A program made the position numbers and the translations under genes. This document shows, one piece after another, positions 2,279 through 6,807 of a DNA stretch of 64,000 nucleotides; position 1 is the first letter of the stretch, and each line of letters opens with the position of its first letter. The DNA comes from an uncultured Bacilli bacterium (GTDB lineage Bacteria; Bacillota_I; Bacilli_A; RF39; UBA660), in contig CANRGA010000001.1 of assembly GCA_947630055.1 (NCBI GenBank), positions 10,195 through 74,194 on the forward strand, written 5' to 3'. The notes under the pieces are model-generated. The model was given only the letters and a program-made list of their open reading frames with translations. It was not told the DNA's origin and ran no database searches.

Positions 2279-2980
2279 ATGAAAAAACTTGCTGCATTTT
2301 TTGCTATGTGCGCTTTAATTACAATGCCAGTTAATGCTGCATGTTCTTATACGGAAAAAGCAGAGGCTAATACAAAGGCCGCAAATGTAAAAATAAATTA
2401 TGAGGTTGTTGAAGATAAACAAGAATCTGATATGGGTACTTCAATAAATGAATATTTTAAAATTAGTATTTTAAATGTAACTAAAGAGTTATATGTTGTA
2501 GTTAGTAATGATGTTACTAATGATAAAGTTACTTATACTTTTGATGATGCTAAAGATGGTGTAATAACATTTAATTGGGATAACATTGAAACTATTACCA
2601 ATTTTACATTTACTATTTATGCTTCAAATCAAACTCCATGCTATAATGAAGAATTAAAAACTATTAGAAAACAAACACCAAGATTTAATGACTTTTCTAA
2701 TAGAGCTATATGTGATGGTATGGAAGATTTTTATTTATGTCAAAAATATACAAATATTGCTGAAATAGATGAAAGTATGTTTATTGAAAAAGTAGCAAGT
2801 TTTAAAGATGGCAAAATCACTGAAGAAGGTAAAGATGCTGAAAAAGAGAAAAAAGGAAATAGCATAATAAGTTTCTTAAGAAAAAATAGATGGTATATAA
2901 TAGGTGGATTATTAGTAATAGCTACTGGATCAGGTGTAGCTATAGTAATAAGAAATAGAAAATACAGGGAGGTTAAATAG
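2279..2980 (+). CDS. Secreted, C-terminally membrane-anchored protein of unknown function
   Basis: Signal peptide MKKLAAFFAMCALITMPVNAA and C-terminal TM WYIIGGLLVIATGSGVAIVI followed by RNRKYR. The ATG at 2279 is preferred over the track GTG at 2267 because of its spacing to the RBS. Confidence 0.6.
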   Translation: MKKLAAFFAMCALITMPVNAACSYTEKAEANTKAANVKINYEVVEDKQESDMGTSINEYFKISILNVTKELYVVVSNDVTNDKVTYTFDDAKDGVITFNWDNIETITNFTFTIYASNQTPCYNEELKTIRKQTPRFNDFSNRAICDGMEDFYLCQKYTNIAEIDESMFIEKVASFKDGKITEEGKDAEKEKKGNSIISFLRKNRWYIIGGLLVIATGSGVAIVIRNRKYREVK

Positions 2981-2982
2981 TA

Positions 2983-5900
2983 ATGAAGAAAGTAGTAAAA
3001 TTAATAAGTCTATTTGGGCTATTATTAATGATTAATGCTTTAAGAGTAGAAGCGGATATAAAAGCAAATTCATATTCAGATGCAGGTTATTTTGGTGGTG
3101 AAAAAGTACTAGAAGCAAAATTAAATGTTAATGGTACTAACACTACTGCATATTGTCATAATCCAGGTGTTACTGCATTTACACAAAGTGATGTTAGTAA
3201 TAAAATAACTCTTGTAACAAAAAGAAAACTTGGTGATACTAAAAATGGTCGTGCTCAAAATATTTATGATGCCGGATTAATGTCAATTTTAACAAATAAT
3301 AATAAAGACAATGGAAATGCTAACTTTAGTATGGCTAAGTACATAGCAGTTAACTTATATGAACAATTATTCCCAATGTTCAATACCAATGGTAATAATG
3401 GTAGTTCAGAAATTCCTTATTTAAAATATATAGTTAATACACAATTGTATGATAGTGTTAAAGGTGATTTAAAAACATTATCAAATAATATGGGTGCTTA
3501 TAATGTTATTAGTAGTAGAATGAGCGGAGCTAGTAAATGTACTAGTAATTGTGGTTCTAGTTCTGATGTTAATACTGCAGTGTCAATGGTAAAAACTGCT
3601 TTAAAAACAGCTATTAACTATGCTCAAAATGGCGAGGCAACAGCTACAGTTGGTAATGCTATTCAAACTCGTTCAGAAACTAAAGATGATAAAGGAAAAG
3701 TTACTTATAAAGATACAGCAAATCATACAATTACAATTGCTTCATTTGGGGATTCTAATAATAGACCTCGTTCAGTTTATTTAAGCTTTAATTGTGCAAA
3801 TTGTAAAAATGTTACTACAAAATTTTATCTTAATGATAAAGAAGTTAATGATATATCAAAAATTAATTTATTAGATTATACAGATAATGGTTCTGGAGCT
3901 GTTCAATTAAAAATTGAATTTACTGGTGATACTTGTGAAGAAATCAATTACACATTAACAGCAACTTACACTCATTATTCTATTTCACGTTCTGGTTATT
4001 CAGTAGCTAAGTGTTCAAATTCTAATAAATGTCAAGGTTTCTATGTAGCTGATTCTAGTAGTTCAACTGGAACAAAAACAACTTCTATAGAAAATAAAAT
4101 AAGTTTATGTCCAACAAATGCTGATGTATCTCAATGTACTGCTAAAATTGATAATGTTGAATGTGTTGAATGCAAAGCTAATACTCATGAAGTAAACATT
4201 GTTGAAGGATATACTTATCCAAATGATAATACTTGTGATACTTCAGGAGCTACTTTAGATATTAAAAAGTGTATTGCAAATGATGGTGCTATAGATACAG
4301 CAAATCATACATATAAAAATAGTGAACTTTCTCAAGATACAAAAAGCCATAATGCTGGTGTATATTGTAAAGAAGATTATACTTTAAGTATGCCAGGCTC
4401 TATAATGGTTGATACTGGTAGATATTTTACTTTAAAATCATCTATTACAGGAACAGAGAAATGTTATACTAATGATTTATTAAATTCAAAAAGTGTAGCA
4501 AGTGTTAAAGCAACAATAGCGCAACATGGAAAAGAAACCGTAAATGCATATAATGAAATTCAAAAATATAAAGCAATTGAAGCTTGTGTTAATAATGGTG
4601 GAAATTGTATCACTGTAAAAAAAGAAAGAAATTCAACTCCATGTAAATATAAATATTATTTTGTATCATCTACTAGACATTGTAAAGAATGGAATGAAAG
4701 TGGTACTTCATGTGCTAAATATGAAACAGATGATGAATATTTGGCTAGATGTAAATCTTTAGGAAAATATGGATATATTAATTCATCTGGTACCTGTAGA
4801 TATATGCCAGAGGCAAAGCCTTTATATCAATATAGAATTGTTGCGGATTATAAAGTATCATATAATGTTTCTTCATGTGACGGAGGAGGTACTACAACCG
4901 CATCTGATAGAATATATGAAGGTGAGTGGCGTACTTGTGGATATGATCAATATTGTGGTGGAAAAAGATGTTCAGAAGTTTCTACTGAAGCTGATGATGA
5001 TACGATTCCAGAAGTAAGAGAAGAAGTTTCTGAAAATGAAAGAGCCGCAGCTTTAGCTGCTATAGGCCAAAAAGCAACAGGCCACTGGGTAAGTAATGGT
5101 GGTGTTGGTAGTAAGGTATCAGCAGGTGGTAGTTGGGTTGGATCATCAGGCTCTGGTTTAAGTGTACAATTAGGTACTGGTAGTATTATTTCTGATATAA
5201 ATGACTGGAACTCTGCTACTGGATATTATGGTGGTATATTTGGTAATGACTTTGATGATACACCATTCGATGGTGGTTGGAAAATGAGTTATAATTTTGA
5301 TCCAGATATGTATTTCTGGTATCAAGAAGAATATATGAAACAAGCTAGAACAAATCAAATGGATATGTATGATAAATCATTAAAAGATGTTAAGGCTCAA
5401 TATTGTGAAGGTACAGTATCTAATGATTATCAAACTTGTTCAACTGGTTGGAAAGATATTCCATCTGTTGAAAGTGGTAGCGTTTGTGTATGTTGGGGAC
5501 CTGATCCTGGAGACTGTGGAAATAAAAATTATGTATTATCTAAAGTAAGATATGTTATTCAGTCTCAAGAAGCAGAAGCAAAATTTATAACACCAACTCA
5601 ATTTTATACAATAGCACCATCTGGAAGTATAGTTGTAGCTGATCAAGGTAAAAGTGATGAAATACCAAATTCAAAAGAACTTACTAATGGTTTACCTGTT
5701 GGTCTTGGATCAAATGGTACAAGAAGATATGTATTATGGGTAGAAAAATTAGGTGAATATTTTGATACTGATAATTTAGGCCGTGTTTGGGGACAAAGTG
5801 ATAGTGTTATTTCTAAATTACTTAAAGATAGAACAAAATGTAATAATCCTAATTCAGCATTAGTAGATGAAGACAATACTCAAGGTGTAATTCATGATGA

Positions 5901-6807
5901 AGGAGTATATGCATGTAAGTATAGTACTGACTGTCCTAAATCATGTACTAAAGAAGATGATAAATATTATTGTAAAGATGGAGAACCTTGTGATAAAGAA
6001 CAATATGATAAAGAATGCTGTCCAACTTGTCCACCAACAGTAGCATATAAATGTGCTGTAACAACTAATGAAAAAGGTGAAACAGTATATTATGATAAAG
6101 CTGGTAATATAACTACTGAAAAGATTTATAAATCTGAATGTTGTCCTAATGACGAATGTCCTGTAACTTGTGCATTCTGCCTATATGATGGCAATAAGCT
6201 AAATGTTCAATATCGACCAATTACATCAGAGAATGTTAACCCTAATGATAGGGATTTAGGTAAAAACTGGAATTGGGAAGAGCCAATAAATACAGCTTTA
6301 GAATTAAAAGCCTATGTTACTACTAATGAAATAGAAGAAAATGGCGATAGCATTTATGATGTAAATTTTGATAATATAGATGAAAATAATGACTTTGCAA
6401 TGCAAGTTACAATGAATGCACAAATGATTAGTGAAATAAGAGCTTATAATGATAAATATAAAGATGAAGGATATGCTAATAACTCTCTTGAATGTTACGA
6501 TTTAAAAAGTGGTGATACAGTTCATAAAAATGTTTTCTGTTATAGTAACTTTATTGATACTTTAGTAGAAAAATTTGCTACAAATAAAGATGATAGTCCA
6601 ATTAAATTTAATGTAGAAAGACCAATGGGTAATGCAAGAAAAGATACAAAAGAAAATGAAAAATACTTTACTAGTTGGATTTCTGCTGATACTAGTAATT
6701 GGAATGTAACCACTACTAAAGAACTAGCATATTATAAACAACATTATGGTATGGAAATGCAAGATGATAAAGTTGTAGACTACCATGTTGGACCATCATG
6801 GAAATAG
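2983..6807 (+). CDS. 1274-aa Cys-rich secreted protein, no recognisable domain (candidate adhesin or pilus-associated protein)
   Basis: Signal peptide MKKVVKLISLFGLLLMINALRVEA. Many Cys residues, including CPTCPP and CCPNDECPVTCAFC clusters. Start is 2 nt after the upstream stop. No LPXTG motif and no C-terminal TM. Confidence 0.6.
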   Translation: MKKVVKLISLFGLLLMINALRVEADIKANSYSDAGYFGGEKVLEAKLNVNGTNTTAYCHNPGVTAFTQSDVSNKITLVTKRKLGDTKNGRAQNIYDAGLMSILTNNNKDNGNANFSMAKYIAVNLYEQLFPMFNTNGNNGSSEIPYLKYIVNTQLYDSVKGDLKTLSNNMGAYNVISSRMSGASKCTSNCGSSSDVNTAVSMVKTALKTAINYAQNGEATATVGNAIQTRSETKDDKGKVTYKDTANHTITIASFGDSNNRPRSVYLSFNCANCKNVTTKFYLNDKEVNDISKINLLDYTDNGSGAVQLKIEFTGDTCEEINYTLTATYTHYSISRSGYSVAKCSNSNKCQGFYVADSSSSTGTKTTSIENKISLCPTNADVSQCTAKIDNVECVECKANTHEVNIVEGYTYPNDNTCDTSGATLDIKKCIANDGAIDTANHTYKNSELSQDTKSHNAGVYCKEDYTLSMPGSIMVDTGRYFTLKSSITGTEKCYTNDLLNSKSVASVKATIAQHGKETVNAYNEIQKYKAIEACVNNGGNCITVKKERNSTPCKYKYYFVSSTRHCKEWNESGTSCAKYETDDEYLARCKSLGKYGYINSSGTCRYMPEAKPLYQYRIVADYKVSYNVSSCDGGGTTTASDRIYEGEWRTCGYDQYCGGKRCSEVSTEADDDTIPEVREEVSENERAAALAAIGQKATGHWVSNGGVGSKVSAGGSWVGSSGSGLSVQLGTGSIISDINDWNSATGYYGGIFGNDFDDTPFDGGWKMSYNFDPDMYFWYQEEYMKQARTNQMDMYDKSLKDVKAQYCEGTVSNDYQTCSTGWKDIPSVESGSVCVCWGPDPGDCGNKNYVLSKVRYVIQSQEAEAKFITPTQFYTIAPSGSIVVADQGKSDEIPNSKELTNGLPVGLGSNGTRRYVLWVEKLGEYFDTDNLGRVWGQSDSVISKLLKDRTKCNNPNSALVDEDNTQGVIHDEGVYACKYSTDCPKSCTKEDDKYYCKDGEPCDKEQYDKECCPTCPPTVAYKCAVTTNEKGETVYYDKAGNITTEKIYKSECCPNDECPVTCAFCLYDGNKLNVQYRPITSENVNPNDRDLGKNWNWEEPINTALELKAYVTTNEIEENGDSIYDVNFDNIDENNDFAMQVTMNAQMISEIRAYNDKYKDEGYANNSLECYDLKSGDTVHKNVFCYSNFIDTLVEKFATNKDDSPIKFNVERPMGNARKDTKENEKYFTSWISADTSNWNVTTTKELAYYKQHYGMEMQDDKVVDYHVGPSWK

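Follow-up and report, generated by a model that had tools for sequence, protein, structure and literature searches.

A 64,000-nt window of an uncultured Bacilli bacterium (contig CANRGA010000001.1; ~26% G+C; all positions given below are window positions) carries, near its beginning, an operon for a Tad-like pilus that is part of an integrated conjugative-type element akin to pLS20 and to the integrative and conjugative elements (ICEs) of Mycoplasma. The operon is headed by two genes, ORF1 and the gene of a 1274-aa Cys-rich protein that we call the giant. In our judgement, the giant is rather probably a Sec-exported surface adhesin with a divergent thioester domain (TED) as its head, used for covalent attachment to a mating partner or to the host and held in place by ORF1 or by the pilus. 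TEDs are a known adhesin module, occurring for instance in Cpa, the tip adhesin of a sortase pilus, and in the conjugation adhesin of pLS20. That the pilus operon belongs to a conjugative element with a type IV secretion system (T4SS) had no part in the interpretation given by the original prediction, an earlier reading of this DNA.

The original prediction had placed at 2279-2980 a protein with a signal peptide and a C-terminal transmembrane (TM) segment and, 2 nt later, a secreted Cys-rich protein of 1274 aa without LPXTG motif or anchor; the coordinates and features of both were verified (Table 1). For ORF1, the ATG at 2279 fits the MKK start of the homologues, and a mechanical list of open reading frames gives a GTG at 2267. 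The ATG of the giant lies 2 nt past the stop of ORF1, with GGGAGG just before it, and the two genes are translationally coupled. Beyond its signal peptide, the giant contains no hydrophobic segment, no LPXTG-like motif and no C-terminal TM segment. The class III leader of type IV pilins is absent from the giant and from ORF1, both of which carry ordinary Sec-type signal peptides.

With 49 Cys residues, the giant is markedly Cys-rich (3.85%, vs 1.33% in the other 49 open reading frames of the window; binomial P ~1e-10). The three motifs quoted earlier were all present at the expected positions, namely CPTCPP starting at residue 1013, the Cys cluster CCPNDECPVTCAFC at 1053 and the Gly/Ser-rich stretch GGVGSKVSAGGSWVGSSGSGLS at 706. 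Other proteins of the window are also rich in Cys, including the pilin-like proteins (4-7%), a 240-aa protein of the T4SS region (5%) and an unrelated 856-aa repeat protein (6.2%); Cys-richness looks like a trait of the surface proteins of this organism or element, and not of the giant alone. The 856-aa protein (53291-55861, + strand), which is encoded in the chromosomal part of the window, has an N-terminal TM segment, 53 Cys residues and dozens of Asp/Cys repeats of the DxDGDGKCDLNCD type, with no Pfam match.

Direct scans of the giant with the hidden Markov models (HMMs) of Pfam, NCBIfam and PHROG gave no match, nor did searches of plasmid and phage collections with the DNA of the region and with the giant (near-identical DNA and tblastn). 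To this extent the earlier statement that the giant has no recognisable domain stands; it fails for the head, which resembles a TED in its fold, in its motifs and through one family member, P0137. When residues 25-375 were modelled with AlphaFold2 (AF2; nine sequences), the predicted local distance difference test (pLDDT) score was ~80-90, and the model comprised three N-terminal strands, a helical region and a beta sandwich, i.e., the beta sandwich plus helical subdomain of the TED fold. Several independent single-domain TED structures topped the structure ranking of this model, with aligned lengths of 137-232 residues: BaTIE (6fwv, 9.2), EfmTIE86-TED (6fwy, 9.2), Cpa (2xi9, 8.9), SaTIE-TED (6fx6, 8.1), SfbI-TED (5a0l, 8.0) and CpTIE-TED (5a0g, 7.9). 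A Foldseek search of the PDB with the N-terminal half of the giant gave no significant match, while PDB sequences searched with profiles built from the C-half, the N-half and the whole family, like a phmmer search with the P0137 head, gave chance-level matches only. Structure prediction with a fold search, which had been proposed as a check, was informative for the head and not for the C-terminal half (residues 690-1274; 9 sequences), whose AF2 model had a pLDDT of 39, was unusable and was left out of the fold search.

TEDs are usually positioned directly after the signal peptide (PMC4450167). A Cys and a Gln, in a beta context and flanking a helical region, are their only fully conserved residues, and a helical TQxx-Phi-W motif occurs in most but not all of them. 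In the giant, Cys58 lies 34 residues past the signal-peptide cleavage site and closes the third modelled strand, and Gln351 adjoins the modelled sandwich strand 328-332 (slice numbering), past helices 44-192. When 39 diverse members of the giant family were aligned (15% mean column identity), 24 columns were invariant, C58 and Q351 among them. The Cys motif of the family is [YF]C-x-[DNHQ]-[PA], with YCLDP and YCIDP as the commonest forms and YCMDP and FCVDP also occurring, and the Gln motif is Q-[RKDE]-[FY]-Phi-Phi. As to TQxx-Phi-W, the first helix after the Cys has (A/T)QNI(Y/F)DAG, with Asp in place of the Trp and a Gln that varies between clades. The giant itself did not match the Pfam TED family PF08341 at E <= 0.1, and just one of the 39 members scanned passed it: P0137 (E 4.6e-59 to the family profile) scored 23.5 bits, against a cutoff of 22, over residues 66-163, from its YC68MDP motif. 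Judging from a predicted fold and an alignment, we conclude that the head is a divergent TED, in which an internal thioester between Cys58 and Gln351 is predicted.

The rest of the giant is modular. Among 147 full-length members, the core modules M1, C1 and C3 were each detected in >93%; for the head (N1/N2) the figure was 25-35%, and for the central and Cys-cluster regions it was 8-18%. In the alignment, variation is greatest in the head (residues 1-375) and above all in residues 531-720 (the latter stretch has a column identity of 18-28% and is detectable in just 12/147 members), and least in residues 400-500 and 850-1274. In the 39-member alignment, C385, C394, C430, C462 (followed by K-E-D) and C494 of M1 are invariant; the AF2 model of this module was not a confident one. 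In one member (P0007), C2 is much enlarged by an insert of repeated units that contain Cys. The sequence GP[SA]W[KR]-COOH closes ~140 of the 147 members retrieved (418 clusters were found), and we know of no sorting or docking signal that matches it.

Table 1. Features of the gene pair and of the surrounding element, with the identity of class-A loci to the window proteins
Feature	Position	Residues	Strand	Remarks	Identity
ORF1	2279..2980		+	233-aa type I membrane protein; candidate anchor or partner of the giant	42-61%
ORF1 signal peptide	2279-2338	1-20	+	Sec-type
ORF1 ectodomain			+	~180 aa; 4 conserved Cys; invariant C22, C121, C145, C154
ORF1 TM segment	2891-2959	205-227	+	single TM, then basic tail
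Giant	2983..6807		+	1274-aa secreted Cys-rich protein	32-63%
Giant signal peptide	2983-3054		+	cleavage between ..LRVEA and D; ordinary Sec-type
TED-like head	3055..4107	25-375	+	beta strands, helical insert, beta sandwich
Putative thioester Cys58	3154-3156	58	+	AYCHNPG
Putative thioester Gln351	4033-4035	351	+	CQGFYV
Conserved core module M1	4108..4572	376-530	+	found in 142/147 full-length members
Hypervariable indel-rich centre	4573..5142	531-720	+	includes Gly/Ser-rich stretch from 5098
Conserved core module C1	5143..5832	721-950	+	138/147 members; invariant G924, G933, R934
Cys-cluster region C2	5833..6207	951-1075	+	contains CCPTCPP and CCPNDECPVTCAFC; length varies by lineage
Conserved core module C3	6208..6804	1076-1274	+	137/147 members; ends GPSWK
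Near-invariant C-terminus GPSWK	6790-6804		+	single occurrence in window
Rest of Tad-like pilus module	6824..13544		+	gene order kept in relatives
DUF5411	6824-7231		+		69-80%
CpaB/RcpC-like	7243-8010		+	TIGR03177, E 8e-10	46-76%
T2SSE/VirB11-TadA-like ATPase	8034-9125		+	best matches VirB11, TrbB, TadA	89-94%
Two TadB/C-sized polytopic proteins	9144-10837		+		85-95%
Four pilin-like proteins	10991-12551		+	M[KR]E..G leader, then hydrophobic helix	~49-78%
328-aa protein (p328)	12558-13544		+		76-94%
2472-aa surface protein	13756-21174		+	M26 IgA1-protease-type C-region (M26_C), weak dockerin match
Gram-positive-type T4SS	22398..38636		+	T4SS_pilin-like, pLS20_p028-like TM protein, TcpE/PrgI-like, VirB4 (split), M23+lysozyme hydrolase, VirD4 coupling protein

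The giant family was sized by an exhaustive HMM search of cluster representatives (clusters at 50% identity), which yielded 418 clusters, 218 of them at E <= 1e-30; the proteins are mostly 1000-1400 aa long and contain 2-4.5% Cys. A word-indexed search returned 11 clusters (10 matches with a 21-sequence alignment, which did not extend the family), and its genome matches were all metagenome-assembled genomes (MAGs) labelled 'uncultured Bacilli bacterium' from rabbit gut. The ORF1 family comprises 57 clusters. In 16 of 17 distinct contexts ORF1 is directly followed by a giant homologue, frequently with a 4-nt overlap. Distant ORF1 homologues (L027-L030, L032) likewise precede a Cys-rich protein of 900-1275 aa, often with the same overlap, that matches the giant HMM and, where complete, has the GPSWK end; DUF5411 and the ATPase come next where the contig goes on.

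A context table, for which all proteins of the window were compared with 26 loci by tblastn, separated two classes. In class A, the order ORF1-giant-DUF5411-CpaB-ATPase-TadB/C-pilins-p328 is kept in all loci, distant ones included, and T4SS genes often follow where the contig extends beyond p328; the co-occurrence of the giant with Tad-like genes, suggested earlier as a check, was seen in these loci, with ORF1 included. The identities derived from the same table (Table 1) show that ORF1 and the giant are the fastest-evolving genes of the operon, the divergence of ORF1 following that of the giant while the ATPase stays flat. In these comparisons of sequences, the gradient is the pattern that would be expected for exposed, target-contacting parts.

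Class B consists of paralogues (L007, L012, L014, L015, L017, L018, L025, L026) that form a single clade, with ~35-38% identity to the giant. They occupy a conserved chromosomal site, flanked on one side by SpoVIF and a 310-aa TM/Pro-rich protein and on the other by a 118-aa protein and the gerA germinant-receptor operon, and adjoining cell-wall polysaccharide genes. The 310-aa and 118-aa proteins were considered as relatives of ORF1 and DUF5411 and ruled out as unrelated. Seven MAGs had one copy of each class, three had class A only and none had class B only.

Downstream of the pilus operon, matches within the T4SS region (26589-31527) included the pLS20_p028 family (E 6.5e-6) and the Mycoplasma ICE families Mbov_0395, Mbov_0396 and Mbov_0397. 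The VirB4 gene is seemingly split (29177-29740 and 29740-31527), its N-terminal part matching the VirB4 family of Mycoplasma ICEs. Housekeeping genes occupy the window from ~42 kb onward, and in one related locus (L001) ordinary chromosomal genes were found just upstream.

In the scheme that we favour, Sec would export the giant to the surface, where the internal Cys58-Gln351 thioester would react with an amine on the target surface to give a covalent bond. The Cys-stabilised body, with its three conserved modules and invariant GPSWK end, would present and retain the head, replacing isopeptide or ester stalks. Because the giant has neither LPXTG nor a TM segment, its retention would be non-covalent, through the co-translated ORF1 or the downstream Tad-like pilus. 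ORF1, tightly coupled to and co-diverging with the giant, would be the simplest anchor, and a PilY1-like arrangement at the pilus tip the alternative; the GPSWK end is a candidate docking signal for either. Since the operon sits in a pLS20/Mycoplasma-ICE-like conjugative element, and given the precedent of the pLS20 adhesin TIEpLS20, the likeliest role would be attachment of the donor to recipient cells, i.e., mating-pair formation. Host or mucus material is an alternative target, kept open by the gut origin, by the host targets of TEDs and by the chromosomal paralogues.

Several points weigh against this interpretation. The giant's own motifs, YCHN and CQGFY, have imperfect Phi/zeta positions (with His at Phi), and its Cys58-Gln351 spacing is 293 residues, vs ~130-190 in solved TEDs. 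The C-terminal half lacks a usable model and, because it could not be modelled, the mechanism of retention is pure conjecture on our part. Next to one very distant ORF1 homologue (L031) there is no giant, and the class-B paralogues have no ORF1, pilus or T4SS neighbours, meaning that the giant family is not strictly dependent on the pilus. Neither a relaxase nor an integrase was recognised anywhere in the window, and for this reason the conjugative function of the element itself is presumed. The main weakness is that we infer pilus display, thioester chemistry and the role in conjugation alike.

The giant shares with the TIE/TED adhesins (SfbI, Cpa/Spy0125, BaTIE, SaTIE, EfmTIE86 and CpTIE) a TED-like fold right after the signal peptide, the invariant Cys in [YF]C.., the Gln in Q-zeta-Phi-Phi, strands flanking a helical insert, a hypervariable head and a large extracellular size. 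It differs from them in lacking LPXTG/sortase anchoring and isopeptide, ester or CnaB stalk repeats (no Cna_B, ester or other Pfam domain was found in it), in having a ~900-aa Cys-rich body of unassigned fold with a GPSWK end and a 293-aa Cys-Gln spacing, in scoring below Pfam TED, and in being encoded with a type IV-filament (Tad-like) operon instead of a sortase pilus. Lacking both LPXTG and stalk domains, the giant is, strictly speaking, no TIE protein.

Efficient conjugation of pLS20 in liquid depends on TIEpLS20, a TED adhesin that has no functional sortase anchor (PMC8092201). Encoded by gene 34 of the Bacillus subtilis plasmid, it resembles the giant in being a TED adhesin with a signal peptide, situated inside a Gram-positive conjugation cluster and not anchored by a sortase, and the T4SS of the window includes a pLS20_p028-like component. 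However, TIEpLS20 (778 aa) has a stalk of CnaB-type domains and is not accompanied by pilus genes, it showed no detectable similarity in sequence to the giant, and the role in conjugation was demonstrated for pLS20 whereas here it is proposed.

With PilY1/PilC of type IVa pili and PilV of the IncI conjugative type IV pili, the analogy is functional only. PilY1/PilC, like the giant, is large and exported by Sec, combines a variable N-terminal part with a conserved C-terminal one, and has its gene together with those of pilins; PilV is a pilus adhesin that reportedly sets mating specificity on IncI conjugative plasmids. These are diderm systems, however, and no sequence or fold similarity of either to the giant was found; for the PilY1/PilC beta-propeller (Pfam Neisseria_PilC), there was no Pfam or NCBIfam match, and family profiles matched no PDB sequence. 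The giant is not a pilin and not a PilY1 homologue.

DUF5411-containing CpaF/PilC operons have been predicted computationally in Roseburia, Ruminococcus and Eubacterium (PMC9523054). They resemble the operon of the window in their CpaF-like ATPase, TadB/C- or PilC-like membrane proteins, DUF5411 and a large putative adhesion/invasion protein; in contrast, they belong to Clostridia, are predictions only, and are not described as having a TED head, an ORF1 partner, the GPSWK family or a T4SS linkage. Searches of the literature brought up no account of TED adhesins tied to type IV filaments or of the giant family.

The original prediction had suggested a pilus-displayed adhesin or tip complex, or a secreted substrate. 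Its adhesin part agrees with the TED-like first 350 residues and with the tight, repeated linkage of the gene pair to Tad-like genes; display at the tip is weakened by the Sec leader, by ORF1 being an equally good anchor and by class-B genes without pilus genes. As a strict tip adhesin, the giant would dock on a minor-pilin complex through its C-terminal modules, possibly through GPSWK, and ORF1 would be an assembly factor only. We regard this as possible and somewhat unlikely. The conserved position of the gene pair at the head of the pilus operon speaks for it, together with the variable head and conserved C-terminal part of the giant, a divergence that follows that of the pilins, and the leader, PilY1 too carrying a Sec-type and not a pilin-type one. 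All seven MAGs with an orphan class-B copy also have a class-A pilus locus, which would fit interchangeable tips (for the concept, see PMC12075869). Against it, the giant is unlike PilY1/PilC or any pilin and its C-terminal part has no structural model, ORF1 offers a simpler anchor, and the class-B copies do not lie beside pilus genes.

A little more doubtful is the proposal that the giant is a colonisation adhesin carried as cargo, directed to host or matrix (gut mucus, a host protein or dietary particles) and independent of pilus and conjugation, like classical TIE proteins. The chromosomal class-B paralogues, devoid of pilus or T4SS neighbours, would agree with such a role, and so would the gut origin of every host MAG and the 2472-aa M26-like surface protein, likely host-directed, that the element also encodes. 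Characterised TEDs, moreover, have mostly host proteins such as fibrinogen as their targets (PMC4450167). Yet cargo is seldom found first and translationally coupled in a machinery operon whose order is kept down to ~25-35% identity, and the divergence gradient links the giant to the pilins.

Less likely again, we believe, is a retractile Tad-like pilus, tipped with the thioester giant, that would bind the recipient covalently and upon retraction draw the cells together for DNA transfer by the T4SS. The paralogues would be interchangeable tips setting the partner range, and GPSWK with ORF1 would represent a new, sortase-independent way of loading a protein onto a type IV filament.

It seems very improbable that the giant is no adhesin and instead a structural or enzymatic envelope part of the pilus/T4SS machine (e.g., a wall-spanning scaffold), with catalytic or disulfide-bonded Cys and a generic beta-sandwich likeness to TEDs, since the machinery is 85-94% conserved whereas the giant is most divergent, the head, though hypervariable, has kept precisely the Cys and Gln of TEDs, the top of the structure ranking is taken by several independent single-domain TEDs, and P0137 passes Pfam TED. 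A Cys-rich spore-coat or exosporium protein, an idea prompted by the class-B neighbours SpoVIF and gerA, was discarded, as all members carry both a Sec signal peptide and the TED signature. A secreted substrate of a type II secretion system-like machine, or a toxin, was rejected as well, being unnecessary in a monoderm and backed by no toxin-like match; the secreted substrate considered in the original prediction is likewise unlikely, because release from a monoderm needs only Sec and the architecture is that of an adhesin.

To our knowledge, how Gram-positive donors find and hold their recipients is poorly understood: the adhesins characterised are few (PrgB, TIEpLS20), and a conjugative type IV-like pilus has yet to be characterised in any monoderm. 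The element described here joins a putative covalent-adhesin module, a Tad-like pilus and a T4SS, and would provide a second, sortase-independent context for thioester adhesins. The giant family, with >400 clusters, all unannotated, a distinctive architecture and a C-terminal signature, is a concrete and testable candidate for the determination of partner range in gut mobile elements.

Some further features of the region deserve mention. A TTGATA-17-TGxTAAAAT site lies upstream of ORF1 (2222-2250), the counts of such sites being not above shuffled background, and a terminator scan of 1900-14000 found none. The pilin-like proteins have conserved leaders that are unusually short (M[KR]E[AST][TI]G), and their Cys content reaches 6.8%; the window yielded no gene for a prepilin peptidase, and neither of the TadB/C-sized proteins had a T2SSF Pfam match. 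The gene for the 2472-aa protein sits between the pilus module and the T4SS in the element of the window only; in five other loci (L005, L006, L013, L021, L023) a T4SS_pilin gene comes directly after that of the 328-aa protein.

Genes for DUF1016/YhcG PD-(D/E)XK nucleases flank the pilus module at 89-1267 (-), 1457-2044 (-) and 21354-22313 (+), as they do in L005, L010, L013, L022 and L027. One copy looks like a fusion of a partial and a full copy, and another has the N-domain only; these genes are possible recombination or boundary markers. The gap that separates the second TadB/C-like gene from the first pilin gene (10837-10991) is an insertion hot spot in L005, L006, L008 and L029, where the inserts comprise a YfhO glycosyltransferase, AAA_14/DUF4143, a 512-aa reverse gene and Bro-N.

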